Assembly: GCA_977862235.1 (NCBI GenBank)
Contig: OZ374561.1
Span: 930,001 to 994,000, forward strand
DNA: 64,000 nucleotides
Direction of reading: 5' to 3'
Source: Dudresnaya verticillata
Lineage: Eukaryota
Position 1 is the first letter of the stretch. Every line of letters starts with the position of its first letter. Shown here in pieces: positions 5,159 through 50,350 of the stretch. The notes under the pieces are model-generated. The model did not search any database, had not been told where the DNA came from, and saw nothing but the letters and a program-made list of their open reading frames with translations. A program made the translations under genes and the position numbers.

Positions 5159-5692
5159 TTCATTCTACTTTCTTCCTCCGCTGCCTACACTCACCGTCAT
5201 CGCCGTTATGCCGGCGCCCGCACGCGGCGACGTTGTCGCTGGCGAGGCGGGTGCCGGTACCGCTCTACCTCATCGCTTACGGCGATTCGATTACCAACGC
5301 GACGCGCTCTCTGCAACAACTCCGGTGTCTGCTCTGTTTCGAGTGCCTTCCCTCGCCCCCGTCGCCCCCGGCGCACGGGCCGAACCGGGAATGGCGAGCA
5401 AAGAAGGAGCCCGGACATGCTTGGCGCAGCGCGACTTGCCAGACCCTGCCGCACCCAACCCACTCCGTTGCTTGACTTCGGAAAACGAGGGGTCCCCGCA
5501 AGCCAAGCTGCTCCGCCGGCCGATGGAGAAGTCAAGAGTCCGCCCGCCGCCGTCGTCGTATGCTGCTGTAATGCGATAGAGGTGTCTACAGTCGAAGTTT
5601 TTCAAGCGACGTGTACCAATGGCAACAGTGGTACGTGCCGTGGAATTTTCTTCGAAAATTCTCAAGGGTCTCAGGTAGGTCCTTGTGTCGAC

Positions 5693-5743
5693 GGGGCGAC
5701 TTAGCGCCCTTCGAACCCTACCATAAAGTTCCCCCATCTCTCT
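5693..5743 (+). repeat. Short dispersed repeat, copy 1 of 3
   Basis: GGGGCGACTTAGCGCCCTTCGAACCCTACCATAAAGTTCCCCCATCTCTCT; reverse-complement copies at 20509-20548 and 31131-31199. Confidence 0.85.
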
Positions 5744-6614
5744 TGACACTTCTGGACGGTACGACCGAGAAGTAGGATTTGGGCACAACAGTCAAGATGC
5801 GAACGAGCACAAGGTCTGCGCTAAGTTTGTCACTCTCTGGCTAGTCTCAGTCTGAATGGGGTCGGACTTGTAAAGGGGCGGCTTTTTTTCTTCTCAAGAC
5901 GAGGCCACGAATAGACGGCGCAGTGCGAGGTGCAGACGCGGAGGAACGATAACAGCGGTGGTGCGCTCAACAGCGCAGCGCGCAAGAGGTGGTGACACGG
6001 GCAGACAGGACTGCACTTGTCGGGGGGGCTTCCCGGGCACTGTAGGGCAACAGGTCGATGCTGCGCGCAAGCATCTACGACCTGCTATTCTCTGAATGAT
6101 GATGGGCGAGAATTATTTATGGAGCTCAGCGCTGCGAGAAGGGCGAGGGCGTTGAAGCCATTCACAAGGCGATTCGCCGGACGGAAATGAACACCAGGGT
6201 GACAGAAGTGGGACGCAGTTTGTAGGAGACGTGCATAGCAGTGCGACGGCGTTGCGTGCGACGCGCAAGGCAGAGGAAAGCAGGCGGGAGGGTAGGCGGG
6301 AGCGCAGGCGGGAGCGCGGCCGAGATTGGAGCTCTGTGGGCTGGAATTTCCGAGTCGGAAACATAGGTGCGTGCGCCTGTGGAAGGCGCGGTGTCCGACA
6401 GACATCACACGGCGTCGCGCGCTGACAATGCCAAAGTGATCCGAATGCTTTTCCGTGGTAAAAGCACTTGCACCCGGGCCGGTGCACGTCCACGGCTGCG
6501 TCTACCTCGTGCAGCCTCCCTCTTCTCCCGCAACGCGCCCGAGCAGCCGCGACAACGACAAGAACAGCCCCGCCGTCCGCGCGTCCCGCACCGGTTGTCC
6601 AACCCGCCGCCGCC

Positions 6615-7201
6615 ATGTGCAACGCGGCGCTGCCGCCAGGCATCTCCTCGGTACGTCCGCTTCCGCCCGCGCGCGCCGCTCGCGCGGCCTTCTCGGCCGT
6701 TCCCGCCGCCGCTAACACGCCTCCGCCGCGCGCGCCGTGCGACCCGCGCCGCGACCCGCGCACGACGCGCAGGGCACCGCGCAGCTGATAATCATCATCA
6801 ACATCCTGTTCCCAGGCGTGGGCACCATGCTCGCGTCCGTCGTCGGCTCGGGGTGCCACTGCGACACGTTCCTGATCGGGCTGCTGCAGCTGGCCACGGT
6901 GCCGATCGGATGGGTGTGGGCGCTGTGCTGGGGGCTCAACCTGCGCAAGCAAGCCGTGGCGCGCGAGACGGTAGGCGGCGGCGGCGACATCGAGGCGGCC
7001 GCCGCTGCCGTGCCTGCGGCCAAGCCGCAGCGCAAGACGAAGAAGAAGGTGCAGGCGCACCACCACGCCACGCCCGCCGGATACCCGCGCGACGGCGACC
7101 GCCACACCGGCGCGACCGCGGGCGCGCCGCCGCCCGCGCCCGCGTACGCGGCGCCGCCCGCGTACGTGCCGCCGCCGCCGCCTGCGTACCACGTGCGGTA
7201 G
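6615..7201 (+). CDS. Spec3/Stum-family small membrane protein with Pro/Ala-rich tail; predicted join(6615..6650,6773..7201)
   Basis: The motif IINILFPGVGTMLAS...GLLQLATVPIGWVWALCWG resembles Spec3/Stum. Intron 6651-6772 has a GTACGT donor, GCTAAC branch point (6711-6716) and CAG acceptor; the phase-0 join is in frame. High GC3. Confidence 0.8.
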
Positions 7202-7654: not shown

Positions 7655-7841
7655 GCGAGCCACGTGGCGCACGCCCATCTTTCCCCTTCCTCACCACCCA
7701 CACAGATTCCGCTCGTGCCTCGCATGTACCCTTCAATTGATTCAATTGATTCAATTGAAGGGTACAGTACATGCGAGGCACGAGCGGAATCTGTGTGGGT
7801 GGTGAGGAAGGGGAAAGATGGGCGTGCGCCACGTGGCTCGC
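7655..7841. repeat. Perfect foldback: 75-bp inverted arms around a palindromic core
   Basis: 7655-7729 is the exact reverse complement of 7767-7841. The core 7725-7766 is TGTACCC-(TTCAATTGA)x3-AGGGTACA. Confidence 0.95.
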
Positions 7842-7913
7842 GGCGCGTTGCGGCTGTCGCAGGTGCCTCTGCTTGAAGCGGCGACGAGCAAGCGATGCTG
7901 ATATAGCGCTGCC

Positions 7914-8356
7914 TGTGGAAAAACTGAAGCAGACTGACTGCTGAGGGTGCCAGATTGGCGCTTAGATGCGACACAGTTTTATCTACGTCGCAATAAATCT
8001 ACTTAGTCTTTATTTACTTTTGCTACAGTAAACTATTTTATAGTGGATAGGTCGTACATTTAGAGACTAGAGCTAGTCTTTTTCTGAAGATAGAGTTAGT
8101 CTTTTATTTAGTAGACTAACGCTGCAAAACTAGCTCTAAGATTGCGGTTTTACCTGCCGAAGTCTTGGCTAGCAAGCGCTCCGGCAGAGTATAAAGGGCC
8201 TCCCTCGCCGGCCAACTCGGCGAGGAAAGGACACATTATCAACTCAAACCACCACCCCAAAGCCACTACTTGACATTTCTTTATTTACCGTCAACCGCTG
8301 TACGCATCGTGTGTATTTTTCCCGTTTTTGCTTACAGCCGCGCCGGTTCTGCCACA
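7914..8356 (+). repeat. 5' LTR
   Basis: Identical by eye to 14170-14612; TG...CA ends. Confidence 0.97.
8190..8225 (+). promoter_or_regulatory. LTR TATA box followed by a GC-rich hairpin
   Basis: TATAAA at 8190-8195; CCTCGCCG (8203-8210) pairs with CGGCGAGG (8218-8225). Confidence 0.55.
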
Positions 8357-8365
8357 TTGATCAAT
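8356..8365 (+). other. Palindromic site replacing the tRNA PBS
   Basis: ATTGATCAAT is a perfect 10-bp palindrome that includes the last A of the LTR. No TGG-starting PBS follows the LTR. Confidence 0.8.
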
Positions 8366-8385
8366 TACGCTCTACCGCCGCCGTT

Positions 8386-9123
8386 ATGCCGCTACGAAGC
8401 ATCCTAAGTAAGTTTTTCATTTAATTTTTGCCTGGGTCTTTGCTCTTGCAAGTGGTAAATTCTCTTTGCTCGATTTGGTGTGCCTGAAGTGCTATAATCC
8501 CAAATTAAGTCACTGACGATTTGCCATTTATTTTTGAACCAATCCTAACTTGGCTTGCAACAGTTCCGACCACAGCCGCCTCGACACCTGTCTTGGCGGC
8601 GGGCATCGTTGCCTCCGGCGGCGCGGCCAATCTACGGGCCCCCGTTGCGACTGTAAGTGCTACCGTTACAGTCCCGGAGTGCAACGAAATTAAAAGTGCC
8701 GCCGTGCGCACTATACGGGCCAACGCCGTATCTAAGGGGCTATCTACGTCGACGACGCCGCCGCCTTCGTCGCACGCACTACCGCCTGTGTCGCGCAAGC
8801 CTGCCGTCGCCGCGCCGCGTCCCGCACAGCTACAGCGGTTGAACCGGCGCAAGGCGAAAGTCCTGGCCGACAAGATAAATAAGGCCGCCAAGAAAACGCG
8901 TCAGGCACCGCGCGCGAAGCGTTTCTGCAAGCTGTGCAAGATTTCTTGCAACGGGCCGAAACCGTGGCGCGACCATATCGAGTCACGTGCCCATATTCAA
9001 GCACGCGATAATCGGCGCGAGCTACCGCGCTGTAAGCCGTGCCACCGCACATTCGAGTCTCACGGACACCTGTCCCGCCACTTGAACAGTAAGGGCCACC
9101 TCGACGTAATTTCGAAACTCTAG
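8386..9123 (+). CDS. Retrotransposon accessory protein with two matrin/JAZ-type C2H2 zinc fingers; predicted join(8386..8407,8564..9123), 193 aa
   Basis: Fingers CKLC-X12-H-X5-H (8926-8994) and CKPC-X12-H-X5-H (9031-9099) follow a basic stretch. The ORF has no ATG of its own, but a GTAAGT donor (8408), CTAAC branch (8545-8549) and CAG acceptor (8563) join ATG 8386 to it in frame (A+TT=Ile). Confidence 0.8.
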
Positions 9124-9213
9124 ATTCTTTTGATAAAATTTGTTGCTTTCAAAAGAATTGTCTCAACTTAACAAAAGTTTCGAAATACCGTACACGTGCA
9201 AACCCGACCTGTA

Positions 9214-10896
9214 ATGGCGGACTCGGAGGATACCACCGTGCCACCTCAAGGGCTACCCGCCCACGGTAACCAAGGTGCTCCCGTCAGCTCCCCAAACGAG
9301 TTGGAGGAAACCGACTCAGAGGCATCTTCCTTGCATACTACCGTACCGTTTGCAGAAAATATCCGCCTTCACACCGTTGCACAGAAGACTTTTGTTGATG
9401 TCATCCGCACGTATCAGGAATGCAATGTGACTGGTTCAGACTTCCTTGACATGCTTCGGGAAGACTATCCACCTTCTTTACTATTCGATGTTGCTATTGC
9501 ATGTAATTTTGCTTTGATGAGAAGACTTGCCCTATTCTTACCAAGTAAGGTTGGTGTACCGTATGCTCCACATGAGTCGGGATATGTTCCCAACCGGTTA
9601 GCTGTATCAATCTATGAAGGTCCCTATCTTGCTTCAGCATACCGTCATATCAGGAGCATGGTTTTGTCTCTCGGTAGTATCAACAGATCTGATTCGAGTA
9701 TCGGTTCGTCATCTCGCGACTCTGTTCCCAGAAGTCATGGCAGTAAATCTGAACGCCCGGAACGACACCTAGCACTAAAAACTGAGGATGGTAACGAAGA
9801 CTCGGATCAGCCATCTGGTGCTACTATAGGTGCTCGGTCACCGGCTCACAACATGGCCGTTCGCTTCAAGGATGATTCCAAGAAGTTCTCTGGTGCTTTA
9901 GGAGAATGCTGGAAGGAATACTTGGAGGACTATGTTGATGCCGCTACTGACTACGAGTTGACCGAAAAACAGAAGCTGCAGTATCTTCCCAATATCCTTA
10001 AGGCTAGTGCTAAAAGGTACTTTAACCGCAAAGTTAAGCACTCAGCTCACTCCTTCACAGCTGCAGATGATATGATGGAAGCGTATTTCAACTCCATCTC
10101 TCGACAGCATCGTATCGAGAATCATCTCAATATGCTCCGCATCGAGAAGTTCCTTTCAGGGACAGTTAACCTCAGTGATGCATTGGAGAAAGTCGATGAG
10201 CATATCTCAACGCTCGCTCCACAAGGCCCAATGCACTGTCGTGCTGAAGCTAACATGGTCGTCTACCTTCGTCGAGCAGTCATTGGACACTCGTGGGCTA
10301 AGGAACCAATCAGCCGTGCTTCAGCTGAAAGGCTGACTTACCAAGAGTTCTTCTCTCAACTCGAATCGGCTATTCAGCAGAACAGAGAGGAGAAATCTCA
10401 TAGGGCTCAGATGAATCCCCGCAGCCGTTTTATCGGGGCTTCGCAGCCTGACTTTCCTAACACTCTACTTGCTAGATACGGAAGAGACAAGACTGTGGCT
10501 TTTGCCAGAGGTAATAGTAAGCCGGTCTCTGCCCAATCAAGCAATATCGTGTGTTTCAATTGCGGAAAGAACCACATAATTAGAGATTGTAAGGAAGTCA
10601 TGGACGCAGCAGCAATTGCCGCACGAAAAGTTCAGTTTTATCAGAGGAAGAAGTTCGGAAATAATCAGAACAAAGCTTTGAAGCGAGTTTTGTTTGAAGT
10701 TTGCGAACAACTGAAACCTGAGCCTGAGATTGAGGATGCCGACACATTCTTCAACGTCAGTGAAGAAGTAGAAGAGGAGATTCAAGACCAAGGTTCGGAA
10801 GATGAAAGAGAGTCGGAAGACGAAGAAGAAGAAGACTCTATCGAACAGTTCTATCAGTCCATTGAGAGTTCCATTCCCAATGGGTTGGATTTTTAG
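9214..10896 (+). CDS. gag: Gag (560 aa)
   Basis: Long ORF inside the LTR element; capsid-like region (KFSGALGECWKEYLEDY...); zinc knuckle CFNCGKNHIIRDC; acidic C-terminus. Confidence 0.88.
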   Translation: MADSEDTTVPPQGLPAHGNQGAPVSSPNELEETDSEASSLHTTVPFAENIRLHTVAQKTFVDVIRTYQECNVTGSDFLDMLREDYPPSLLFDVAIACNFALMRRLALFLPSKVGVPYAPHESGYVPNRLAVSIYEGPYLASAYRHIRSMVLSLGSINRSDSSIGSSSRDSVPRSHGSKSERPERHLALKTEDGNEDSDQPSGATIGARSPAHNMAVRFKDDSKKFSGALGECWKEYLEDYVDAATDYELTEKQKLQYLPNILKASAKRYFNRKVKHSAHSFTAADDMMEAYFNSISRQHRIENHLNMLRIEKFLSGTVNLSDALEKVDEHISTLAPQGPMHCRAEANMVVYLRRAVIGHSWAKEPISRASAERLTYQEFFSQLESAIQQNREEKSHRAQMNPRSRFIGASQPDFPNTLLARYGRDKTVAFARGNSKPVSAQSSNIVCFNCGKNHIIRDCKEVMDAAAIAARKVQFYQRKKFGNNQNKALKRVLFEVCEQLKPEPEIEDADTFFNVSEEVEEEIQDQGSEDERESEDEEEEDSIEQFYQSIESSIPNGLDF

Positions 10897-10958
10897 AACG
10901 GAGTACTCGCCAATGTCATCCTGATTTGCCAGAGTCAGAGCAAATTGACACGAGCCCG
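10887..10958 (+). promoter_or_regulatory. Putative programmed -1 ribosomal frameshift signal
   Basis: G_GAT_TTT heptamer immediately before the gag TAG. The pol frame is -1 and open from 10866. Downstream bulged stem: CGG/CCG, CTCG/CGAG, TGTCA/TGACA, ATTTGC/GCAAAT (10899-10958). Confidence 0.75.
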
Positions 10959-13900
10959 AACGCTCCGCCTAATTTACTATCTGGCATGAAAAATCCGATT
11001 CTGTTTAGTGCGTTCAAAAAAGGGAAAAAACCAAAAAGTAGAAAACAGAAAAATCCAAAAAGTAGAAATAGACCCTACATGCAAATTCTCAACACCGGTA
11101 TAGAAGACATTAAGTTGGACAGTAGCTCAAATGACTTCCACGGGGCTTGCATAGACACTGGAGCTCAACGCAGTGTAATTGGAAAGCAACAGGCAAAAGC
11201 ATATTGCAAGAAGGTTGGAGTCCAATTCAAGCAAAAAGCTTCTCTGCTAAGGTACCGTCTTGGCAAGGGAACATTTTCTGCTATAGGTTCAATCCCAGTT
11301 AGAATTTGTACACCCGATGGAAGAGTTCTGAGGTTGAACGTTGACGTTATTGATGTGAATATTCCATTCTTACTTGGTCTAGATTTTCTAGATAGAGAGA
11401 AAATATTCGCGGACAACGTTGACAATCAGCTGGTCTGCAAACTAGGATGGCATATGCCAATCGTTCGCAAGTTCGGTCATCTTTATGTCGATTGGACGGA
11501 CTACACCGTCAACTTTACCAAAGCAGAGCTGAAGAAACTCCATCTACACTTCTATCACCCTACTGTACAGAAGCTTTACGCTCTGCTCAAAAGAGCTAAA
11601 CCTGAAGAGGTTGACCACGACACGAAGAAGCTTCTAAACGAAATTACTAGAGCATGCCAAACTTGTCAAAGATTCACTCCACGACAACAGAGCTTCAAGG
11701 TTTCATTTCCAAAGGGAATCGTATTTAACCAAGAGCTCGCGTTGGATTTAATGTTTCTTGACGGAATGGCAGTACTGCATGTCGTGGACTTGCAAACGCA
11801 TTTTAGTGCAGCAACATTTTTGGCTGGTCAATCGATACAAGCTACTTGGTATGCATTCTTGGAATGCTGGGCTACCGTATACACTGGTTTCCCAGACTCT
11901 ATTAAGACAGACCAAGGAAGCTTATTTACTTCACCAAAGTGGAAAGAAATTATGGACGCCCACGGTATTGCGTTTACACTTACCGCCGTAGAAAGCCATA
12001 ATTCCTTAGGTGCTGGTGAAAGGTATCACGCACCATTGAGAAGGATTTATCACAAAATCCGACATTCTCAGCCGAATATTGATGTCATGATGGCTCTTAG
12101 ATTAGCTGTCAAGGCGATGAATGATACTATGAACCCTGAGGGGCTCGTTCCTTCCCTCCTCGTCTTCGGTGTTCTACCAAGGTTTCCTGGAGCATCTGAA
12201 TCCTTACCTGATCAGCAAGAAAGAATGCAGGCACTCTTGCTTGCTAGACTTGAGATGGAAATTATTTCTAACGAACTCCGTTTACGGAAGGCATTAGAAT
12301 CGAGGCTTCCGCAAGCTGCTTCTCATGAGCTGGAAGTTGGACAGGAAGTTCTAGTGTATCGAGAAGATGAGAAACCGATCAAATGGACTGGACCGTTCAA
12401 GATCAAGAGATTAGAAGGGAAGCAAGTGTTCATAGATCGAGATGGTACTGAGGTTCAACACTCAGTAGCCCAAGTCAAGCCGTTCCTTCAAGAGGAGGAA
12501 GTCGGTGAAAACTTTGTGGACGTACTACACTCAATGGTAAGGCTTTTCGTTTCCTGCAAAGGCAGAGAACAGGAACCAGCTCAAGTGTATGTCACTGAAG
12601 TTCTACATCCCAGAGACCCTAGAGGAGGCTCTCCAGAGTTCTTGGAAGCTAAGAAGAAAGAGATTAAAGGTCTCATTGAGAAGGGTACTTGGAAATTAGT
12701 ACTGAGAGAAGACGTCCCCAATAACGCAAACATATTGAATGGTAGATTTGTTTTGGCTATCAAGAATGCCAATACTAACGAAGAGATTTTTAAAGCAAGA
12801 TATGTGGTCCAAGGACATAAGGATAAGGAGAAGAACTTCTTGATCCACAATTCTACCAACGTGAGACAGAGTTCTACGCGACTGATGATGGCAATAGCTT
12901 CTATGTATGGCTTCCGCGTCTGGAGTCATGATGTTAAACAAGCTTACTTGCAGAGCTCAGAACAACTTTTGAGAAAGGTCTATTTGAAGCCCTCAAAGGA
13001 GTTCGAGCTAGCACCCAACCAGTTGTTAGAGCTTCTCAAACCATTGTATGGTCTACCAGATTCTGGAGATTACTGGAACCAGACCATGCTTCTGCATCTT
13101 ACAAAGGACCTGTACATGCAGCGGACTGTCAGTGATGTTTCCTTGTTTTTCAGGTACATCGACGGAAAACTCGCAGGAATGACGGGTTCCTATGTAGATG
13201 ATTCGTTACACTGTGGTAACGAAAAGTTTCTGAAACTTTCCGACAAGTCTTTAGAAAAGTTCGAATCAAGAGAAAGAGAGTTCGATGATTTTGTGTTCGC
13301 AGGAGTGGCCGTCAAGAACTCTCCAAATGGATTTCAGCTTGGACAAGAAGACTACATAAGGAAGCTTTCTATCCTCCCGTTAGATTGTAGTTACTCTGAT
13401 TTCAGGTCCAGTCGTGCTAAATTGGCATGGGTTACTCACACTAGACCTGACATATGTTTTATGGTGAACAAATTAGCGCAAGTAACAGCAGCAAAGTTCG
13501 ACATCGGACAAATTAAGAAATTGAACAAGGTCGTTAAGAAGATTCAGAAGGATCCGAAGAGATGCCTACAGTATCAAAAGTTGGACTTCCGCACGTTACA
13601 TCTCAAGGTGTACGCTGACTCGTCATTTGCTAATAACGAAGATCAGACCTCTCAGCTAGGCTACATCGTCCTACTAGCAGATGATTCGGGCAAATGCAGC
13701 ATAATTCACTACTCCAGCCACAAGAGCAGACGCGTCGTTCGGTCTGTACTTGGTGGGGAAGTATATGCCTTCGCTGATGCTTTTGATTTCTCTTTCACCC
13801 TGAAGCACGACCTTGAACGCATTCTGAAGAAAAGAATCCCACTCAAGATCTTCACGGATTCTCGTAGCTTGTTTGACGTAATCACGAAAGCGTCTTCCAC

Positions 13901-14126
13901 TACTGAGAAAAGGCTAATGATAGACATCACAGCGGTTCGGAATGCTTATGATGCAAAAGAGATATCTGATGTTGGTTTCATTCGTTCTCAGCATAACCCT
14001 GCTGATTCGTTTACAAAAGAAGGAGCAAATGATGCGCTCCATGACATTGTTTCAAAGGGAAAATACGACCATCCTATCGAACAATGGGTTGTTCGAGACT
14101 GGAATACTTCACTAAAAATGTCTTAG
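10887..14126 (+). CDS. pol: Pol polyprotein: aspartic protease, integrase, reverse transcriptase, RNase H
   Basis: Protease CIDTGA; integrase HLHFYH...CQTC with LALD, KTDQG, GERYH; RT KARYV, DVKQAY, LYGL, YVDD; RNase H YADSS, FTDSRS, ADSFTK. Uninterrupted. Confidence 0.96.
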   Translation, partial: GFLERSTRQCHPDLPESEQIDTSPNAPPNLLSGMKNPILFSAFKKGKKPKSRKQKNPKSRNRPYMQILNTGIEDIKLDSSSNDFHGACIDTGAQRSVIGKQQAKAYCKKVGVQFKQKASLLRYRLGKGTFSAIGSIPVRICTPDGRVLRLNVDVIDVNIPFLLGLDFLDREKIFADNVDNQLVCKLGWHMPIVRKFGHLYVDWTDYTVNFTKAELKKLHLHFYHPTVQKLYALLKRAKPEEVDHDTKKLLNEITRACQTCQRFTPRQQSFKVSFPKGIVFNQELALDLMFLDGMAVLHVVDLQTHFSAATFLAGQSIQATWYAFLECWATVYTGFPDSIKTDQGSLFTSPKWKEIMDAHGIAFTLTAVESHNSLGAGERYHAPLRRIYHKIRHSQPNIDVMMALRLAVKAMNDTMNPEGLVPSLLVFGVLPRFPGASESLPDQQERMQALLLARLEMEIISNELRLRKALESRLPQAASHELEVGQEVLVYREDEKPIKWTGPFKIKRLEGKQVFIDRDGTEVQHSVAQVKPFLQEEEVGENFVDVLHSMVRLFVSCKGREQEPAQVYVTEVLHPRDPRGGSPEFLEAKKKEIKGLIEKGTWKLVLREDVPNNANILNGRFVLAIKNANTNEEIFKARYVVQGHKDKEKNFLIHNSTNVRQSSTRLMMAIASMYGFRVWSHDVKQAYLQSSEQLLRKVYLKPSKEFELAPNQLLELLKPLYGLPDSGDYWNQTMLLHLTKDLYMQRTVSDVSLFFRYIDGKLAGMTGSYVDDSLHCGNEKFLKLSDKSLEKFESREREFDDFVFAGVAVKNSPNGFQLGQEDYIRKLSILPLDCSYSDFRSSRAKLAWVTHTRPDICFMVNKLAQVTAAKFDIGQIKKLNKVVKKIQKDPKRCLQYQKLDFRTLHLKVYADSSFANNEDQTSQLGYIVLLADDSGKCSIIHYSSHKSRRVVRSVLGGEVYAFADAFDFSFTLKHDLERILKKRIPLKIFTDSRSLFDVITKASSTTEKRLMIDITAVRNAYDAKEISDVGFIRSQHNPADSFTKEGANDALHDIVSKGKYDHPIEQWVVRDWNTSLKMS

Positions 14127-14151
14127 TATGCAAAAGTGACCAAGAAGGATT

Positions 14152-14168
14152 AAGCGAAAGAGACGGGA
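14152..14168 (+). other. Polypurine tract
   Basis: AAGCGAAAGAGACGGGA, 1 nt before the 3' LTR. Confidence 0.7.
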
Positions 14169-14169
14169 C

Positions 14170-14612
14170 TGTGGAAAAACTGAAGCAGACTGACTGCTGA
14201 GGGTGCCAGATTGGCGCTTAGATGCGACACAGTTTTATCTACGTCGCAATAAATCTACTTAGTCTTTATTTACTTTTGCTACAGTAAACTATTTTATAGT
14301 GGATAGGTCGTACATTTAGAGACTAGAGCTAGTCTTTTTCTGAAGATAGAGTTAGTCTTTTATTTAGTAGACTAACGCTGCAAAACTAGCTCTAAGATTG
14401 CGGTTTTACCTGCCGAAGTCTTGGCTAGCAAGCGCTCCGGCAGAGTATAAAGGGCCTCCCTCGCCGGCCAACTCGGCGAGGAAAGGACACATTATCAACT
14501 CAAACCACCACCCCAAAGCCACTACTTGACATTTCTTTATTTACCGTCAACCGCTGTACGCATCGTGTGTATTTTTCCCGTTTTTGCTTACAGCCGCGCC
14601 GGTTCTGCCACA
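14170..14612 (+). repeat. 3' LTR
   Basis: Identical by eye to 7914-8356; followed by TSD CTGCC. Confidence 0.97.
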
Positions 14613-16603: not shown

Positions 16604-18121
16604 TTACAAAGAGGCTACTGTTTCCTGTCGCATCCTCACTTGCACCGGCATTCCCATATCCAATGGACCCCCCTTGACACTTGCGCACCTTGCAGCCTCT
16701 GCCCAGCCGCTGCATGAAATCACCTCATCTTCTCCGCAGCCCAGCTTGAACTCAAACTGACGAAGCAGTTCCGCGAAGATGAGAGGGCCTTGATGGTCAC
16801 CCAAGAACCGCCCCACACAGTTCCTGGCGCCGAGGCTGAACGGCGCATAGGCTCCTGCTGGAACCCTGTCGGCGTCGCGAGGCTCAGATGCAGAGCCCCA
16901 TCTTTCCGGGTCGAACATATCCGGGTCTTTCCAGACTTCCCGATGAGTCTGTGCCCCCTGCAGAAGCGCGATTATCTGCTGCCCTTTGGGAACGGTGAGG
17001 CCGCTTCCTTTCAATGTGATTTCTTTCGTTGTAAACCGCGGGAAGAAAGGTAATGTTGCGTGGAGGCGAAGAGCCTCCTTCATAGCCTTCTTCATATATG
17101 AGAGCTGCTCTACTTCTTCTAGTGTAATGGGTTCGCTTAGCGGGCGATCTCCAAAGTGAGCAGCAACCTCCTTCTCCATCTCCAACAGCGTTTCGGGACT
17201 GCGGAGGGCCTCGTATAACAACCAAGTAAGAGTATGGTTTGTAGTATGCGTTCCAGCAACCCCGAACTCAATGATGTGGGTTGTAATTTTGGACAAGTCT
17301 CCCTGTCCTAGAGAAAGGAAGACGTCAAGTACATCCTCTGCGCGACCTTCCTTCTCTTCAGGAGATTCTGTTTTTCTCTTCTGGATGAGACCGTGGCAAA
17401 TTTCATGTATGCTGTCCCTCTCTGCAAACAGCTTGGCTCGAACGCCAAGGGGGGTTAAGAATTGTCGAACTGGATATCCAAGTACTTCGCGTAAGGCCTC
17501 ATCGACAAGAACGTCTATGGCAGTGGTAAATCGCTCCCGGTCGAGACGGGACATATCGAGCCCAAACGCAACGTTGGTAATGATGCGTGACGTGCAAAGT
17601 GCAAGAGTGTTCGTAATGTCCACCGGTTTGGACCACGACCCGTCACGGGTGGAATGGGAAGACAGCTTGATATTCTCAACAAGCTCCCCTACAGCTTGGA
17701 CCATCTTACCATGAAATCCGTGAAGCATTCCATGGTGGAATGATGGGCGCAAGTGCTTCCGGGCTATGCGATGTTCCTTAGTAGGAGAAGCCAACAGCCC
17801 GCCGGGAACAACAGTGTTGATAGCGTGCATTGCCGACGGCGGACGGGTAAAAGTGTCAGGGGTTGATAAGATCTGGGCTACATCAGCTGGTGCGGAAGTA
17901 ACGATGGCCTCGTGGGGGCCTAGGTAGATGCGGGTCAGATCTCCATACTTCCTGGATAGAACGAGTAATTTGCGTAGGGCTGTATGTGGGTCAAGGGATA
18001 TGCCAAGAAACTCAAACAGGGATGGAGAAGGGACTGATTTGAAGGTCGACGGGGCGATGAACAGATAAAGGGGGAGAACGAAGGGGATAAAGGTCAGGAA
18101 GATGACAAGAAAGGGGTTCAT
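16604..18121 (-). CDS. Cytochrome P450 (505 aa, single exon)
   Basis: N-terminal membrane anchor, I-helix AGTHTT, ExxR (EALR), PERW, heme motif FSLGARNCVG. Confidence 0.96.
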   Translation of the reverse strand: MNPFLVIFLTFIPFVLPLYLFIAPSTFKSVPSPSLFEFLGISLDPHTALRKLLVLSRKYGDLTRIYLGPHEAIVTSAPADVAQILSTPDTFTRPPSAMHAINTVVPGGLLASPTKEHRIARKHLRPSFHHGMLHGFHGKMVQAVGELVENIKLSSHSTRDGSWSKPVDITNTLALCTSRIITNVAFGLDMSRLDRERFTTAIDVLVDEALREVLGYPVRQFLTPLGVRAKLFAERDSIHEICHGLIQKRKTESPEEKEGRAEDVLDVFLSLGQGDLSKITTHIIEFGVAGTHTTNHTLTWLLYEALRSPETLLEMEKEVAAHFGDRPLSEPITLEEVEQLSYMKKAMKEALRLHATLPFFPRFTTKEITLKGSGLTVPKGQQIIALLQGAQTHREVWKDPDMFDPERWGSASEPRDADRVPAGAYAPFSLGARNCVGRFLGDHQGPLIFAELLRQFEFKLGCGEDEVISCSGWAEAARCASVKGGPLDMGMPVQVRMRQETVASL

Positions 18122-20508
18122 GGTGTACCGCTAAGCAGAGCGTCACGACTGCCAGTGCTTCTGGCTGCTTCCGCCCAGCGATGCTTCTGAAATATGTATT
18201 GCTCATGCGGAGAGGGAACCGTAAACACCGGATTGAGTCAGACTGGACTGGTTGGCAGACTCTATGGAGTAGAAGCGCCTAACAGGTGGTAGCAATGAAG
18301 GGCACTCGGTTGTGGCTTGGAGAATGCGACTTTTCAGCCCTGAAACGAAGAAAAGACTTGAAGCAATCGGTAGCACTATACAATTTTGCCGCTTTGATCG
18401 GTAGTACAGTGTAGTGTTATCGATATGGACAGTCTACTAGAAAGCCACAATTGTTCAATAGTGGTCCAGAATGTGCGCTCCACGTACAGCATCATTTAAA
18501 AAAGGCCAACTTGCCATTGTAGAGACGAGACGTGCGAGTATCACGTTGCGTACAACGGTACTTCCGATGCACATTGTCTCTCTGAGGAGCATCAAAGCTA
18601 TGAGAGACGCTCATAATGTCGCTCAATTGACTTTGTTATGACCACTGCTTGGACAGCTAAGGGTGCGAAGCAGGAAACTACTGGCTGGCATGTGAAAGGT
18701 ACGGCTATAGACAAGATGAAGAGGGCGACACGTTCTGGCTCTTAATTACATACCAGATGCCAAGTTCTGCATCCGTGGCGCTCTAAAGCTCCTGCAATTG
18801 GGCTCTCTATTGCATTGCAGTAACACCATCCTTATGGTCAAAACTGCTTGCCTTTCTCGACGTCATTGCGAAGCTAAACTTACAAATGGTCCAAAAAACA
18901 GCGTACAACAGGTACTGAACACTCGTGGTGTCCAATACACCGATATGATGCTTAGGTGTTTTGTAGAGAGGTTCTGTATTTGAGCATATAAATGGCATTT
19001 CAAGCCTGCGAAGAAACCAATTTACGATCAACACGGAAGGGCGTATTCTTCACAGAAAAACGTTGTTCAGATGCTCTTCGTGAGCCATTCTAGCCTTGTG
19101 AAATCTGGCTCGATAGTTAAGTGCTTCACATCACTGCGTATGAATACGCGGGGCGCATATCGCGAAGAGCTCATGTCGTTGCTATTACGCGTCCACAGAG
19201 ACTCTGTGGCTTTTTCGAAGCTCCTGTCTGTGGAGGTCAGCCGAGAGGTGTGGTGCTAAACCAGGGGTCGTTGTTCTCAATAGAAAAAAAACTGAACCAC
19301 TTGCGCTGGCATCCGTTGACAGTGCAGAGAGATCAAACAGGATTTGTATCCTGAGGGTTGTGTAAGATAGTTCCTCTACAAGGAGTTTGTAAAGTTGACA
19401 CAGTAATCCTTAAAGGGGGAGGGGCTTGTAGGCTTTAGAGGAAGGCTATTTCCTTGGATTGCGGAGTAGAAAGCATCCGGAGCAAGTCGGCAGTATCAAG
19501 CGAGCCTGATACGGAAATCCATGGAGGTCTGTTAGGATGAGCACGAGAACGGGCTCAAGGAGAGTTACATGGCGGGACATACTTTCTCACAACCGATACT
19601 GACTGCTCTTGTGGCACAGGAGAGCAGAGCATCAGCTCTTCGACTTTAACCTCCTCACCGTCTCAAGAGCCGCCAATAAACTTGCAGTATTCTTTACCAG
19701 TACATTGAAATAATCACCAGGTGTGGTCGGGTCCATCTTCCATTATGGCATCTGGGAGCATATTGAGGATGCAATGGCAGTCTTTCAAAACACTGGTAAC
19801 GCTGGAAATACTCCATCGTCGCCTGGGGCTTCTGCTATGTTCTTTGGAGCTTCAGAGAGAGATTGCTGAACACAGCTAAAAGCAACATGGGCCGAGGAAG
19901 AGTTGCCTTCACAGACATCGCGTAGTCTTCTCGTAACAGCGCTATATTTCAGCTTCTCGCTAGTTGTGTTGATATGCTTTCCTGCAGCGGCTTCTTTTCT
20001 TTAGCGGCGTCCTCAGCGCTTCTTTCTTGCTCCAAAGTCCTCACTGCGGCTACTGATGCTATATCTGCCTCACAGGGTGACTGTTGGCTCTGGACAGCGC
20101 AAAGCCCCATCAACATCGGGGCATCCAAGCTCATTCTTATTGTAGAGGAATACGGGCCTCATAGGCCAGCTTTTTTGCGGCAACGGCTCCTCGCATGCAT
20201 TCTTTTAGTTATACATGTTTAGCGTGAATTGCCGCAACCTATCCCCTCCTCCTGCAATGTGTCCTGGTAGTTAGACTCTTTCCCAGGGTTGCTTTTTTAG
20301 ATTAAAATAATGGTTGTGCTTCAGTTAGTTTCACAGTATATCGTATATTCTTGCATGTCCCATCAACCGTATAGTTTCGAAGGAACCGCATCGGGTGGAT
20401 GGGCTTCGTATTCTTTTACAGCGGATTTTCCTTTATCGATGATTTACTGTAAAATGCATTACATGCTTTAATTTACCTCGCAAGAAGGTCTTCGATGCTG
20501 CTTTTTTA

Positions 20509-32120: not shown

Positions 32121-34140
32121 ATCGGGAGTGCGGGTGCCTCAGTCGTCGAGGAAGAGCTCGACATCGGGGCCGAGGGCAGCGCACCATGACGGGAAGGCGG
32201 TCCGCAGGAAGGCAGAGCGGTCTAGCTAGAGACTTCAGTCGGGGTACTGCCTTCATGTCTTTCGAACGGAGGTGGGCCCTCTTTCCGAGGGTCAAAGCCC
32301 ATTTCCAGCAGGAGACCGACGGCTTCATGACGTGGATTGATTGTCGCCTTTATGCGGCGAGGAGCATCTTGTCGAACAGATTTCTAATTGGCTTCGCGTC
32401 CTCAACAAGTTCAACATCTATTGGTATCTGATCTATGGTAACGCAATCGTATCAGGTGGGCCGAGGCATATTTCAACGCCCTGTGAATGACAGGGATACG
32501 AGGTGGGCTGTCATAGCTCTCAAATCCTAGAATTACCGTGTTCGCAGTCGTCGGACCAAGCTGAGAAGAAACCTGGCAGAGGTCGTCACTCAGAGCAATT
32601 TGGACACGCACATGGGCGTACAGGGCGTTTAGTATCTGGGCTTCGTCCTACCTAAGCCAGATCACGAGGGCAATGGAAGGGTTTTGGAGTGCTTTATTGC
32701 TCATCTTCAGCTTTTCATATGGACCATGTCTGGAACGCGTATGATGGTGGTTGAGAGCCGTCGAATAAGACTCCAACAGGCTTGACCAGCTCCTCTGCAG
32801 GGCTCTTCCGGATCCTTGAAAGCAGCTTGAGGTGAACGCGTTTGAAACCCGAAGACAGCTGAGACTCTTGTATAGGACAGTCCAATACCAACACTGGGAT
32901 GACCGTTGTGCGCGGTTGTAAAAGTATCGCTCTGTCATACTTCAGAGTAAGTGCCTACTTGGCAGCTATGTTTTTCTTTTGTCAATCCGCATCATGATCC
33001 GCAGGACAATTTTAGAATGCCAGTCGCCTGAAAAGCGTTGCACTGACTAAGGATGCCCACCCCACCTGACCAAATACGTACGGTACGAGTAGGGTTCATT
33101 CCTTTTGCCGTTGTAACTTTTCTGCTACTGTCAAAACATTATTGATAGTCTGAATGATTTTGATTATCTACGGAGGATTTCTTTTGCAATAAGCTCATTT
33201 ATTAATTATTATATAAAGCTCATAACTGCAACAAAACCAGTGGAAAAAGGGCAGTCCAGTTTTTGGAAACTTGCGAAACTGATTCAAAAACACTCCATTA
33301 CCGCATTACAGCATCTTTGTGTTGCAATCTCGCTTGTTACAGAACCTCTCTAGCGCGCTAGCTGCGCACAAACCCTGCAAATGGTAAGCACTTCATCCGT
33401 GTAAAGAACACCGGCTTCATCAATGAATCATCATCTCTGTCGACGAAACGATGATTTCCAAAAAGCTCACAACACTTGTTCCTGAAGGGCCACCTGGCAG
33501 AATATCAGCCATAAGCAAGTGATAGGCCAAGTCGCTCGATGATATCATGCATAGTTCATTTATCAAGGTTACGTTGTGCTGACTGTGAGGTCCAATAGGT
33601 CACCATACCTTATTAGTATCTTTGCGTTCAAGGGTACAGCTGATGTGGATGTTGCGAGGTTCTGAAAGATGGGGCAGCACAAGTGTTTACATTTTTCTCT
33701 GTAACTTAACTTAGATCAGAACGCCAATGACAACTCCAACAGAATCAAGTGCACCTCGATCGGGAATGAGGTTGAGATTGTCGAATAACTGTATTGGTCA
33801 TTCCGTTTCAGAAGCGAAAGAGGAGGATCCTCTTGCATTAACTTACGGTAGAACTGTTTTGAACAGCCCAAATCAGAAGGCTATTGGTACTGTCGAATGA
33901 CAATGCAATTTTTTTGCAGGTGCGATTCGCTTCGATTGTTTGGCTCTTGTTTGACCTCGGACTAGAGCTTCACAGAAGCAACTCAAAATGAGTGAAGCCG
34001 ACATCCTCAATCTCGGGTTCGGAATCAGCGGGCGATATAAAGGATGCATCCCTTCTTCACAGCGCGGCACGAGCGAAACTGCACAGCAAACACTCGTCAG
34101 TACTTTTACACATACTGCATTCCACAAGTACCTTGACGAG

Positions 34141-35955
34141 ATGAGGGCTTCGATTTACTTCTTTCTCTTCGCCCTCTTTGCCTCACCGTTCTCAACCATC
34201 GCTGTTGCGCAAAAATGCCGTCAAGGATCTTTCTTCAACGGAGAAAAGTGCGTGCTTTGTCCGCGTGGGACCTACCAAAACGAAGAAGGAAAGACTTCTT
34301 GCATCAAGTGCCCAACTGGGACCGTCGCACTTGTTCGTGGGGCCGAAGGGGTTGACGCTTGTCAGGGGTGTGGCAAAGAAAAGTTCAGCACTCCTGATGG
34401 AACGAAATGCAAGCGCTGCAGCCTAGGCACAAGTGCTGTTCCAGGTTCTGTCAACTGTGTCTCTTGCCCGATCGATTCCTACATCACAGATAGCGGAGAA
34501 GGTCGTTCAACATGTGAGAGATGCAGCAAAGGAGAGTTTACCCTGCGAAGAAACACTCTGTTCCTATGCAAAACTTGTAGGGGGAAAACGCGTTTTGACC
34601 GCAAGAAGCGCCGCTGTGTTGCTTGCCCGCCCGCAACGCGATCTCAGAATGGGAAGTGCAAGCCTTGTCGTAATCGGTTAATTGTTGGAACCGATGAGTA
34701 CGGCAGCCTCGATTGTATTCCTTGCCCTCCAGGCTTCGTTGGGGATAAAGATGTTATGTCGACAAAGTGCATACCATGCCCAAGTGGAACACGCTCAGCT
34801 GCAAATGGCAGATCCTGCATCAGTTGTGACTCTGGGGAAAACACATTCGCGCGAGGAGCAAGTGTTTGTGTGCCAGACTTGACGCCTTGCCCGGCAAACT
34901 TTTTCCGAAACCGTCGGGGCACTTGTCAGCGCTGTAACAGGGGCCAGCGGCTGAATCTGAAACGGAAGAGGTGCGAAATATGCAGAAACAATGAAGAGAG
35001 TGCTGGAGGCGTGGCTACCAAATGTACTCGATGCCCCAGTGGTGCAGTTCGTTCAGCTTCAGGCTGCGTGTGTCGAAAAGGAAGAGGGAGAAATCTTGAT
35101 GGAAGTTGTTCTGTGTGCAAACCAGGCACAGCGGTGAATGAGTTCTTTGAGTCCGGTGAAGGCGTTGACATTGTTGAGGTGAGGTGCTCAAAGTGCGGTC
35201 CAGATTCCATCTCTGCGAAAGCAGGAGCTCCTTTCTGCAGAGGGTGCCCAAAAGGACAATTCCAGCCGAAGGAAGGGCAAACGAAGTGCATTCCGAAAGG
35301 CAAATGTCCGAAGGGTTCGGTACCTTCAGGATCAGGGGTCAGAGACGAATGTCTCAGAAAGGCTACGAATTGTCCTACGAACTCGGAAAGAGTGAATGCA
35401 AAGGAGGGATCGTTTTTCTTCTGCAACGTAACAAGTTCAACTTGTGGGGAAAATCAGTTCAAGGTGAAGGTCTCAAACGAGTTTGATGTGGGAACGCCAG
35501 ATGCGGAGTCGGGATTCTTCAAGCAAGATTTGTTCTACTGTTCTGAATGCGGACGAGGCCGGTTCTTCAACAGAACAGATTCGTCCTGCAAGAGGTGCCC
35601 ATTTGAATTTTTCGGAGCGGGAGGCATAAATCCTTGCAAAAGATGCAAGGATGGCAAGCTGCTGGATCGTGAGCGAGGATGTGTGTGTTACTCTTCAAGG
35701 AGATTAGGAAAGGGTGGTAAATGTGAGAGCTGTCCTCCAGGAACTTTTGGGAGGCAGTTCCGGATCGGTTGTACTCCCTGTGAGGCTGGGACCTTTCAAA
35801 ATGAAGCAGGGCAATTCTTCTGCAAAGCATGTCGTTCTGGGACTTTCAGCGGAGAAGGAGCTAAGTCTTGCACGCCTTGTGGCGAAGGCGAAATAAGTAT
35901 TGGCGAGGGGAACGCGAACTGTGTTGTACCCGGGTCTCTCAAAGGCACGGGCTGA
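34141..35955 (+). CDS. Secreted cysteine-rich repeat protein (GCC2/GCC3, ephrin-receptor-like CxxCPxG repeats), 604 aa
   Basis: Signal peptide MRASIYFFLFALFASPFSTIAVA; many CxxCPxGT(Y/F)QxxxGxxxC repeats; no C-terminal TM; TATAAA about 100 nt upstream. Confidence 0.9.
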   Translation: MRASIYFFLFALFASPFSTIAVAQKCRQGSFFNGEKCVLCPRGTYQNEEGKTSCIKCPTGTVALVRGAEGVDACQGCGKEKFSTPDGTKCKRCSLGTSAVPGSVNCVSCPIDSYITDSGEGRSTCERCSKGEFTLRRNTLFLCKTCRGKTRFDRKKRRCVACPPATRSQNGKCKPCRNRLIVGTDEYGSLDCIPCPPGFVGDKDVMSTKCIPCPSGTRSAANGRSCISCDSGENTFARGASVCVPDLTPCPANFFRNRRGTCQRCNRGQRLNLKRKRCEICRNNEESAGGVATKCTRCPSGAVRSASGCVCRKGRGRNLDGSCSVCKPGTAVNEFFESGEGVDIVEVRCSKCGPDSISAKAGAPFCRGCPKGQFQPKEGQTKCIPKGKCPKGSVPSGSGVRDECLRKATNCPTNSERVNAKEGSFFFCNVTSSTCGENQFKVKVSNEFDVGTPDAESGFFKQDLFYCSECGRGRFFNRTDSSCKRCPFEFFGAGGINPCKRCKDGKLLDRERGCVCYSSRRLGKGGKCESCPPGTFGRQFRIGCTPCEAGTFQNEAGQFFCKACRSGTFSGEGAKSCTPCGEGEISIGEGNANCVVPGSLKGTG

Positions 35956-43923: not shown

Positions 43924-45842
43924 GTTTCACTCCCTCCCTCCCTCCCTCCCATCACTCATCACTCATCACTCTCCTGAATCGGGATGGACAGCCTGAACAA
44001 AGAGGGAAGAAGGTTTGCACATTGCGCACATGGACCATCGTTCCTTTCCGTCATAGACCATCCAGCGCAACTGTATTGCGCCGGTCTCCAGACGCGCTCT
44101 GTAAAGACTTGCCCCACAGCACCACTGTGCTGTAATAGCACGTGAGACAGCGTATCAAGAGGCACATGTGCGGCTTGTCGGTAAATCTACCCTAAGAATA
44201 TTGAAGGCATAAGAAGTTCAGAACGGCGAAAATGGAGGTACGGTGATGTACGATTAACAATACCAAGTAACATTACAGCTCGCCAACGGTGCAATACAGT
44301 GCCCCACCGCTACAGTATATCTTTCGGCCCGTACAGTACGTTTAAGACTTAGGTAACATTTACATACAGATATTAGAAGGGAATAATCAATGATACAGTA
44401 ATAATGCTGATGATGATGCCGTTGTACCAACTTAACCACACAATTCTGGAGAAGATGGCGGCCTCGTTTTAGGGCTCTTAGACCTGGGGCGACAGTTTGC
44501 TGACTGGCAGACCGGCCTTGCAGGCAGAGCGATTAAGAGAACACGTAATTGCACCAATTTATTCGCAGTCGCGATGGGGCAAGAGCAAGTCAAGCAACAG
44601 GTTGCTGTCTGGTGACCTTTGCAGTAAGGCAGGAGATGTTGCAACCAGTCTCCATTCGCGATACCCAGTGCCAAAGACCTGGCAATAACCAACGGAACTG
44701 GGACTTTTCTCACAAGGCTCGCAGAATCCATCCGAATCCGTCCGTTTCTAGCCTGGGCCCAGACTCGACCAGACAATGAGGAGTGGCTGACGAAAGTATG
44801 TGACTGCAAGTCGAATATTTGTTGGCATTCCAAAAGGGTTCTAGGCACTTATGAGATGCGGTTGACGAAAGTATCTCTAGAGCTGGAAAAGTTCCCGGCT
44901 TGTTGTAGCGTCTCTCTTATTGCAAAAATGACTGCCTGCCGATGGAAATTCCAGGCGCTGACTGTAAATCGCGGTCGCGAGCTATTCTTTGCAGGCTCTG
45001 ATCCATTAAAGCTGTCCATACACTTCTCTTATTGCAAATACCTTTATCTCGCATGTATGCAAGCCCTCGAATTCCTCAGTCACAGTCTACGGTTAAGAAT
45101 CACTCCATAAGGCCAACAAAAGCTAATAATATCGATGCGCTTGCTAATAACTTTGCTCGACAATTTGTCGAGCAACCAAAACTTTGTATGCAAGCGATTG
45201 CTGATCGAGCAAAACTATTATTTGCAAGCGATTGTGGACGGCAATCGCATGTTTCACACATAACGTCTTCTACAGTACAACCTCGTCAAACCTCGTCATT
45301 GCCATTATGCATAATCAGCAAACCCGACAAGCAGGACGGGTCAACAATGGTTCTGAACATCTTGTGGTATCGCAGCCTGCGTATATATACCCTGTGATGT
45401 GCTGTTCTGGCGATGTGCCCGGTCCTGAACCCTAGCCCGGACATGATGCCGCATCTGCTTTTCCATATTTTGCAAGTCCCTGACTCTTGTAACAACCAGA
45501 TATCAAGACAAGGACACCAAATTGGGTATCTATTCTTGTGTGACGCCAGCAAAAGAAGCTCATTCTTATTAAATGCCGTCAGCGGAGGGAGCGCAGTGAT
45601 GATTGTATCACAAGTTAAAAAAGCTAATCCTATTCTTCGACTGAGATGCGTCTAGCTCTTTGCTTTACTTAGGCCCGGGTAACGCCCCTGTAGACCCTAG
45701 AGAATACCGTATTTCTGCTTAAAACTGCAGACGTACCCTATCCAGTTGTTGGACAGCCAAACCTATCAACGCCGCCAAAGCAAACGTAAGGGAAGAAGAA
45801 CAGGTTTCTGGGAGCAGCATTGCCAAAGACATCCGCTCTGAT

Positions 45843-48881: not shown

Positions 48882-50053
48882 TGCTGCGCTGGTAGACCTG
48901 ATATCTTGGAGCGTGCAACAGAAGGGTGCGGGCTTTCCAGGCTCCACGCTGCAGATGTGCACGGCTCAAGATGAGCAGAGTTTGGACTTCGCTGCTTCCA
49001 CGTGCGAGGCGAAAGAGCGTTCGCGCTTGGCGGGTGCGGATCGCGATCAAGCGGAAAGCAGTTGCAATCGCGATTCGCGTTCTCGTGCTTGTGCTGATGA
49101 ACAGTAGAAGATTTAGGCTTCGCAGCCTTTCTTGTCGGCGACGCAAGTTTACGCGCAACAGAATAGACCGCAGCCCATCTCCGATAAAGGGTTTAGGACC
49201 TTGTCCCCCCCCCCCGCTCCAGATATACTCACCAACTCGTACATATCTTCCCGTGCGATGCGCATACTTCGATGCCGCTCATGTGGCCCGCTGTGCTTTT
49301 CCATCACCGCCAATGCATCGATTTGTCACCAGCCGCGATGTCAATACCTCTCTTGACACCGCCCAGTCACAGTCCGTCGCAAGCATCTCCGATACCGTCA
49401 GCTACACCCCAAGCACAAGGAACGGTGGCACAGTTACAAAGTCCTCACGGCAGGCAGCGAAACGCGCAAGTCCCACCCGTCAGCGCAGCCGTACGTTCCC
49501 GTTCTCGCGACAAGAAACAACACGCGATGCTGCTGTGATGCTACGCTTTACTGTCCCTTAACGTGAGTAGTTTCTGTGCCGATATCACACAACACTCTCA
49601 CTCTCCACCCGCCGCTGCCGTTTGGAGCGCGATTGTGAACACGCCCAACAGCCCCTACGGCACTGCGGGTACTGCTGTACGTGGCCAATAGCAAATCCCC
49701 GACACCGGTGCATTCCAACATTTGCCAACACCGACAACGTGCTCGCTTCGCGCCACGGAAGCGCCCTCTCCGCGCACCCCACGCGGGTGAAGGAATAAAG
49801 TCGTGCGCTGCCTCTGCAACCGCCCGAAACACGCCGCAATGCAGCTGTACCCCGTCCGCGCGCACCAATGGCTCTCGTACAGCGCGAAGCGCGGCGACCC
49901 CGCGGCAAATGGGCACGGCCCACCGACGCAGCGTTGTACTTGTATCTCACCCCGTTCCGTCAGTTCGCGCTACGCCATATGCCAGCCGCACAACCAGCAA
50001 TGCTTGCATACCAAATCTGCCCGAGTAAAGCGCCAGCGCGCTCCAGTACAGCG

Positions 50054-50079
50054 CCCCCCCCCCCCCCCCCCCCCCCCCC
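50054..50079. repeat. C26 homopolymer
   Basis: 26 consecutive C upstream of the RBR gene start. Confidence 0.95.
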
Positions 50080-50350
50080 AGAACTTCTTCACCAGCGTCT
50101 TCTTCCTCCTGCGCCCGTCGAGCTGCAAAGTCCCCCGCAAATCCACAAACCGTCTTGTGTCCTGTATGACACCCTTGCCTTATCAACCTCAATTAGAAAC
50201 TGTAACTGCGCGCTGCCCCCCGACGTGTTTGACTGCTCTGGAAAAAGAGAGCAGAGACGGCGACACCACCCAAGTCATCACGGCCGTGAACGCTCCCGAC
50301 AAGTCTCAGCCTGCTCCCGAGAGTGGTCTCCCTCGACGCGACCCAACACT

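Follow-up and report, generated by a model that had tools for sequence, protein, structure and literature searches.

The leader of a retrotransposon in Dudresnaya verticillata raises the question of whether a simple long terminal repeat (LTR) element can divide its RNA between two fates, one spliced for an accessory protein and one unspliced for Gag and Gag-Pol. The element is a complete Ty1/copia LTR retrotransposon at 7914-14612 of the stretch analysed here (64,000 nucleotides (nt) of contig OZ374561.1, positions 930,001 to 994,000; hereafter the window), and its leader holds a predicted intron and an open reading frame (ORF) for a small two-finger protein (Table 1). An initial annotation of this DNA proposed that a single AUG opens either a short upstream ORF (uORF) or the finger protein, depending on splicing, and that a long stretch without AUGs follows. 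Judged from sequence, the spliced RNA probably yields the finger protein and the unspliced genomic RNA Gag and Gag-Pol. The combination is conserved and apparently undescribed, and its parts have precedents in the splice-gated accessory genes of other retroelements.

The leader of the window element

On the plus strand, ATG occurs between 7880 and 9300 only at 7895, 7966, 8386 and 9214, the last being the start of gag. No other ATG-free run in the window, on either strand, is as long as that between the final two (8389-9213); the next longest measure 570 nt on the minus and 540 nt on the plus strand. ATG is the sole trinucleotide of the 64 that is missing from 8389-9213. None of 5000 dinucleotide shuffles of this run was ATG-free, with a mean of 8.3 ATGs; the mononucleotide expectation is 10.6. 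A recount thus agrees with the initial annotation that nothing intervenes between the two ATGs. Its expectation of about 13 was too high, but the depletion is nonetheless real.

Read without splicing, ATG 8386 reproduces the 12-codon uORF described earlier, with its stop ending at 8424, and the same AUG doubles as the predicted start of the finger protein on spliced RNA. Removal of the intron at 8408-8563 places it in frame with the finger ORF, giving an open frame of 193 amino acids (aa) to 9123, as had been claimed. The intron has two branch candidates (CTGAC at 8513 and CTAAC at 8545), the CAG ending at 8563 is the first AG after either, and each frame contains three stops. GTAAGT is found 15 times in the 128 kb of window strands, only three times together with a branch site and YAG. 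On these signals and their recurrence in related elements, the intron is very probably spliced in part of the transcripts. An Rfam scan of the leader returned nothing relevant. A second GTAAGT lies at 8653 within the finger exon, in phase 0, and the relatives described below have none at the matching place. Strong CTAAC-type branch signals in the window, taken with its long uninterrupted host ORFs, the GalEa-like motifs of the element and a close relative within an Algimonas MAG, suggest a red algal host.

Recurrence of the layout in related elements

Relatives were sought with a profile from an alignment of 12 finger ORFs (A3), which gave loci L001 and L002 in genome_contigs (two of 71 candidate stretches) and L003-L005 in metagenome_contigs (five of 155 stretches, three loci); L023 was added by searching the metagenome-assembled genome (MAG) that holds L001. 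L001 is a copia element of the same clade, with Pol 63% identical to that of the window and the same gag/pol junction, inside a MAG of Algimonas, a seaweed-associated genus. L003 and L004 form one family (99% alike) of classical copia elements that have Gag and Pol in a single ORF and GGTTATGGGCCCAG as primer site; the Pol of L003 is 21% identical to the window Pol. L023 is a Ty3/gypsy chromovirus (RVT_1, RNase H, integrase and chromodomain), and L005 is a rearranged classical copia contig without a leader, counted for ATGs only. L002, in a Clostridia MAG, was dropped after showing 38% identity over the fingers only. A further copia element of the window clade, L018 (Pol 53-57% identical), has neither a finger ORF nor GTAAGT in the 338 nt before gag that its contig holds, and was not counted as an absence because the contig covers no more than this. 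Scans of viral_contigs with pol, the Gag alignment and the finger alignment found nothing, nor did a scan of metagenome_contigs with the Gag alignment, and among 257 genomes in the family of the bacterial MAG G001, G001 alone matched.

A single rule was applied to all elements: the first GTAAGT after the LTR, the first CTRAC, then the first AG. In all four elements it yields a junction in phase 1 and supplies the finger ORF with an AUG at its start, the introns measuring 156 nt in the window, 178 nt in L001, 173 nt in L003/L004 and 88 nt in L023. The AUG is obtained in two ways. In the window and L003 it lies in exon 1 and, unspliced, runs into an intron stop after 12 and seven codons, respectively. 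L001 and L023 have A|TG as junction codon: splicing would create the finger AUG, and a separate uORF of seven and ten codons, respectively, begins within the intron. Exon 1 of L001 is ATG-free with an in-frame TGA at 70-72, and this element therefore has no other AUG start. The idea of one AUG with two products thus holds for two of the four elements, and gives way in L001 and L023 to a junction-made AUG and an intron uORF. For the three elements other than the discovery element, rough chance estimates are about 0.035 each for GTAAGT in a 300-nt leader, 1/3 for the L003 frame and about 1/96 for each junction-made in-frame AUG; on this arithmetic, a chance origin of the shared splice geometry is negligible.

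ATG depletion recurs as well. Between donor and gag, the window has no ATGs against a shuffle mean of 8.2 and L003 none against 9.8 (0 of 3000 shuffles each), L001 has two against 8.9 (7 of 3000) and L023 two against 6.2 (100 of 3000); from finger start to gag, L005 has one against 6.9 (3 of 3000). CAT counts and gag stretches of equal length, used as controls, were not depleted. The desert is therefore perfect in two of the four elements, and splice signals, phase and depletion recur in all three relatives with an assembled leader, the conservation that had been named as a check. As to start contexts, the unspliced uORFs (12, 7, 7 and 10 codons) in no case combine R at -3 with G at +4, and the gag AUG has G at +4 in all five elements and R at -3 in four. 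In three of five elements gag begins in the frame of the finger stop, which was treated as chance.

Further features of these contigs were noted. In L003 (1-550 vs 5630-6778), two LTR variants feed one intron, and no primer site can be seen in one of them; this may reflect a chimeric assembly or a subfamily that arose by recombination. L005 contains tandem copies with a truncated pol fused in frame to the finger exon, which reflects either an assembly error or a rearranged array. The finger-to-gag spacers of L001 (at 932) and L023 (at 1244 of the reverse strand) have in common a motif of 14-15 nt, AACCTT..CGGACAAC, that the window, L003 and L005 lack; L001 and L023, a copia and a gypsy element respectively, come from one MAG.

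The finger protein and its family

The predicted protein carries two CxxC-x12-H-x5-H fingers (Pfam zf-met, 41.8 bits, cut-off 21.2; zf-C2H2_jaz, 33.9 bits, cut-off 22.6) and a basic helix with 14 K/R in 36 aa. In the predicted structure, fingers and helix are confident and the N-terminal half is disordered (predicted template modelling score, pTM, 0.39). Foldseek searches with this model gave zero matches at E <= 0.001, the nearest single-finger fits being TUT1 and spliceosomal chains at E > 1. Sequence searches of the PDB returned generic C2H2 proteins, and ESM Atlas generic eukaryote finger clusters only; a word-index protein search found nothing with the finger ORF as query and three already-known, unnamed members with alignment A3. 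The basic helix and the matrin/JAZ-type fingers suggest nuclear RNA binding, an attribution based on the zf-met/jaz family label, the helix and the finger type; by the family label, double-stranded RNA would be a candidate ligand. The protein is likely a nuclear RNA-binding regulator of its own element. By analogy, a Rev- or CERV-like helper of unspliced RNA or a silencing suppressor are the leading guesses for its role.

A phmmer search against 1.84 billion representatives gave 175 matches, and the family figures rest on 150 of these. Among them are 35 intact members, defined by their short length and an undamaged pair of fingers close to the C-terminus, nine of which were in the sorting profile. 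Internal methionine is absent from 27 of the 35. Overall, Met accounts for 17 of 6390 residues in the intact members, compared with 1140 of 58382 in 82 other matches and 53 of 2324 in five Gag homologues, whereas Trp is equal between intact members and other matches (0.31 vs 0.32%). The first residue is V or L in 10 of the 35, as expected of ORFs without a genomic in-frame ATG, and some initial M are relabelled GTG.

Across lineages, the finger proteins are more conserved than Pol. Identity between the finger protein of the window or L001 and that of L003 is 46-49%, where Pol identity is 21-22%; window and L001 share 49% in the finger protein and 63% in Pol. The L023 finger protein is more distant (27%, E 1e-11). 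As the accessory gene is better conserved than Pol across lineages and is present in both superfamilies, the finger cassette has likely moved between retrotransposon lineages. A more speculative extension, offered tentatively, is that Ty1/copia lineages and Ty3/gypsy chromoviruses within one group of hosts, probably red seaweeds, have exchanged a portable cassette consisting of splice gate, short uORF, AUG-purged two-finger gene and early poly(A) site, and that the product of the spliced RNA, the finger protein, binds the RNA of its own element, feeding back on splicing, export or silencing in the manner of an independently evolved Rev.

Expression model and alternatives

Under the favoured model, part of the element transcripts would lose the intron, and the finger ORF would be translated from the spliced RNA. 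On unspliced RNA, ribosomes would either skip the moderate-context AUG at 8386 or translate the uORF and re-initiate, as short uORFs permit, and then scan about 790 nt across the AUG-purged finger gene to the strong gag AUG. The purge of AUGs from all three frames of a coding exon points to such scanning. In all four elements the primer site precedes the intron, so that a spliced RNA of full length would still be copied and leave an intronless element. The persistence of the intron argues that spliced RNA is not copied and that reverse transcription would use the unspliced RNA only. Possibly, and on weak signals, the spliced RNA ends at UAAA just after the finger stop and thereby loses the 3' signals for reverse transcription. 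UAAA is the poly(A) signal in a red alga (PMC8831791, PMC6413133). TAAA starts 11, 9 and 9 nt after the finger stop in three elements and 33 nt after it in L023, and overlaps the stop in L005.

Several observations weigh against this model. A TAAA within 40 nt turns up in 19-49% of shuffled spacers, and finger exons contain TAAA too (8691 and 8876 in the window), for which reasons early polyadenylation is a hint only. The depletion in L023 is modest (P about 0.03), and residual ATGs exist: L001 has one at 659 within the finger frame, L023 one at 960 (a 44-codon ORF) before gag, L004 a four-codon uORF in the primer-binding site (PBS) and L005 an ATG at 1415, none of them in the full context of R at -3 and G at +4. 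An unusual fold or packaging hairpin in the intron was not supported (z -0.33). Met is present in eight of the 35 intact family members, and genomic context is known for one of them (P0038, near-identical to the L001 ORF). The independent relatives with a leader number only three, all of them metagenome or MAG contigs, and the whole case is built from DNA and protein sequence.

The same purge of AUGs is equally expected if Gag were reached by leaky scanning on the spliced RNA, which would then make both proteins and leave the unspliced RNA as packaged genome only. Consistent with this, splicing leaves the finger AUG in moderate context in three of four elements; in L001 its context is strong. 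Spliced RNA would moreover keep the primer site, and intronless copies would be expected, yet the intron is retained in all four elements; the position of TAAA shortly past the finger stop also speaks weakly against it. This explanation is judged unlikely.

Gag might also come from a third RNA, spliced from the same donor to a second acceptor before gag or begun at a downstream transcription start site that skips the finger gene. Such an acceptor is allowed by TTGAC followed by YAG just before gag in L001 (1027-1040) and L003 (1425-1436), partial signals in two of five elements, and the window has its second GTAAGT and TTAAC/AAG at 9168-9177. No convincing branch and YAG precede gag in the window, L005 or L023, and a third RNA leaves the all-frame purge of the finger exon unexplained, making this a rather improbable account.

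Translation of the finger ORF from a single, unspliced genomic RNA by a near-cognate start, with Gag made by leaky scanning, has a precedent in ORF I of rice tungro bacilliform virus (RTBV; PMC5902531), and in-frame TTG (8521), ATT (8530) and ATC (8542) lie ahead of the finger region. It is very unlikely, since GTAAGT, branch site, AG-free zone, phase 1 and junction-made AUGs in the four elements would go unexplained. Finally, passive capture of a host gene fragment, with the signals as leftovers or chance, is largely refuted: such fingers are common in eukaryote host proteins, but the ORF is intact within an element with identical LTRs, ATG depletion goes far beyond shuffles, the identical layout recurs in three lineages, and Met is twice as common in members with damaged fingers (n = 33; 32 of 5389 residues vs 17 of 6390 in intact members, Fisher p 0.006).

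Comparison with known systems

A close likeness in how the start codon is made is the env gene of insect endogenous retroviruses in Drosophila (ZAM/Beagle and springer subclades), which gains its start by splicing, the source being either a short peptide exon situated before gag or an AU dinucleotide (PMC12992720). Both modes are predicted here, the short exon in the window and L003 and A|TG in L001 and L023. The insect env lies after pol and its intron removes gag-pol (PMC12992720), whereas the present gene lies before gag, its intron spans 88-178 nt, its product is a zinc-finger protein and its hosts include copia elements. An envelope gene after pol was not found in the window element, where the pol stop at 14126 is 43 nt from the 3' LTR.

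In its possible function, the predicted system recalls CERV of the Caenorhabditis elegans element Cer1, a regulator made from spliced mRNA: a nuclear protein on which the export of unspliced RNA depends and which has a putative RNA-binding zinc finger (PMC10309623). CERV has 517 aa and five exons, shares the Gag frame and has no obvious homology outside nematodes (PMC10309623), unlike the two-exon, stand-alone finger ORF of about 170-240 aa, for which a CERV-like role would be an analogy. In RTBV and badnaviruses, about 900 nt of upstream coding sequence is kept AUG-free so that ribosomes reach the capsid/reverse transcriptase ORF; leaky scanning is shown for RTBV ORFs I-II, and short uORFs in the AUG-free stretch are tolerated (PMC5902531). 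The window leader has the corresponding features (a long AUG-free upstream ORF, suboptimal upstream starts and a strong downstream start), a likeness of working only, as the element is not a caulimovirid. RTBV and badnaviruses are pararetroviruses with shunting and an AUU start, and their upstream ORFs have no splice gate (PMC5902531).

Among copia elements, Arabidopsis EVD has a sense intron, and its spliced (shGAG) and unspliced RNAs coexist, as proposed here; splicing is coupled to early termination and only the unspliced RNA is full length (PMC5580714). The EVD intron lies within gag-protease and yields Gag (PMC5580714), whereas that of the window lies 650 nt upstream of gag and would yield an accessory protein. 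Plant LTR elements are generally without introns, with Ogre and EVADE as exceptions (review, PMC12786077). Accessory ORFs before gag also occur in the MDG1 group, where a short RNA ends after sORF1; splicing was not seen there, sORF1 and sORF2 are not described as zinc fingers, and only a gypsy lineage is concerned (PMC11952523).

No description of the cassette was found in the literature; Repbase, subscription papers on Porphyra and Chondrus and the supplements of a Bostrychia preprint were beyond reach and may note the ORF. The preprint text, as far as available, describes mobile accessory genes for DNA transposons of red algae, together with an expansion of C2H2 proteins, and does not mention a finger gene in LTR elements, and the part seen of a further paper (PMC2806351) has nothing on an extra ORF.

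Significance

Few LTR retrotransposons have a sense-strand intron or an accessory regulator, and the known cases are each confined to one lineage. Here, a single expression design, with two ways of making the start codon, spans both superfamilies and elements that share only about 20% identity in Pol, which points to a mobile regulatory module and likely to a shared, retrovirus-like on/off switch rather than a quirk. If this is true, the cassette turns simple retrotransposons into complex ones, and could explain part of the expansion of red algal C2H2 'transcription factors'; tallies of small C2H2 genes in algal genomes may include retrotransposon cargo. With one small intron and one small protein, the system offers a compact natural setting for studying how retroelements without env split RNA between translation and packaging, and for probing of what use RNA-binding fingers are to a transposon.

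Architecture of the element and neighbouring observations

The element has the protease-integrase-reverse transcriptase-RNase H (PR-IN-RT-RH) order with a copia-type reverse transcriptase, and its LTR pair and 5-bp duplication are likewise those of Ty1/copia. The identity of the two LTRs indicates a recent insertion. Pol contains a protease (94-181, weak match), rve (301-375) and RVT_2 (608-833), with TRPDI at 859 and ADSFTK at 1046.

Table 1. Features of the retrotransposon and its leader in the window
Feature	Position	Strand	Description
5' LTR	7914..8356	+	443 bp, TG...CA, 100% identical to 3' LTR
Predicted TATA box, TATAAA	8190-8195	+	inside 5' LTR, from sequence
Palindrome, 10 nt	8356..8365	+	LTR end, expected primer-binding-site position; resembles CHSeq1 of fungal GalEa (PMC5445492)
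uORF	8386..8424	+	12 codons unspliced, TAA 8422-8424; AUG context moderate (-3 G, +4 C)
ATG-free run	8389..9213	+	825 nt
Predicted phase-1 intron	8408..8563	+	156 nt; GTAAGT donor, CAG acceptor
Finger exon	8564..9123	+	low-complexity N-part, basic helix, two fingers; ATG-free in any frame
Candidate early poly(A) signal, GATAAA (weak)	9132..9137	+	9 nt past finger stop
gag	9214..10896	+	560 aa; AUG context strong (-3 G, +4 G); C-x2-C-x3-H-x4-C knuckle
pol open frame	10866..14126	+	PR-IN-RT-RH order (copia type), zero internal stops
Predicted -1 frameshift site, GGATTTTTAG	10887..10896	+	at gag stop, into pol; identical in L001
3' LTR	14170..14612	+	443 bp, preceded by purine-rich tract
Target-site duplication, CTGCC			5 bp, both flanks of element

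The frames of gag and pol overlap at GGATTTTTAG, with pol in the -1 frame, and this motif is likely a -1 frameshift site that sets the Gag:Pol ratio. Such a frameshift is unusual for copia elements, and the motif presumably resembles the dianthovirus slippery site. The gag end at GGATTTTTAG is shared by L001 (2692-2701), that of L018 is TTTTTAG, and three of five Gag homologues have a DF/NF C-terminus.

Within Ty1/copia, the element resembles the GalEa clade in its TGT...CA LTRs, 5-bp target-site duplication, DTGA, YVDD, TRPDI and ADxxTK motifs and CHSeq1-like palindrome (PMC5445492); all of the clade motifs DTG(C/A), HHCC, YVDD, TRPDI and ADxxTK are found in its Pol, which reads KARYVV where metazoan GalEa has KARLVA. 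It differs in its extra finger gene and in having overlapping gag and pol in separate frames instead of a single large ORF. The metazoan PBS TGGTAGCAGAGC was not found after the 5' LTR, and inspection of the leader by eye did not reveal CHSeq2 of the fungal CHS hairpin. The motifs without the single ORF led to its being filed as GalEa-like only, a label that rests on motifs and layout. A canonical tRNA primer site was not seen at the LTR end; L001 (~80-92) shares the TTGATC core of the palindrome.

At 7655-7841, 72 nt upstream of the insertion, two 75-nt arms form a perfect inverted repeat around a repeated centre of the TTCAATTGA type; the structure may be similar to a miniature inverted-repeat transposable element (MITE) or be a source of hairpin RNA, and its matches to Rfam microRNAs lie below gathering scores. 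At least eight contigs of G001 (C116, C118, C121, C135, C136, C142, C146 and C313) match eukaryotic copia/gypsy LTR retrotransposons, representing host contamination in a GTDB representative. Elsewhere in the window, long uninterrupted host ORFs lie at 16604-18130 (minus strand), 33955-35955, 45723-47696 and 49799-51673. The host products listed are a cytochrome P450, an ephrin-receptor-like cysteine repeat protein, an S41 peptidase and a RING/IBR protein, and the P450 carries a sterol 22-desaturase-like label from ESM Atlas.

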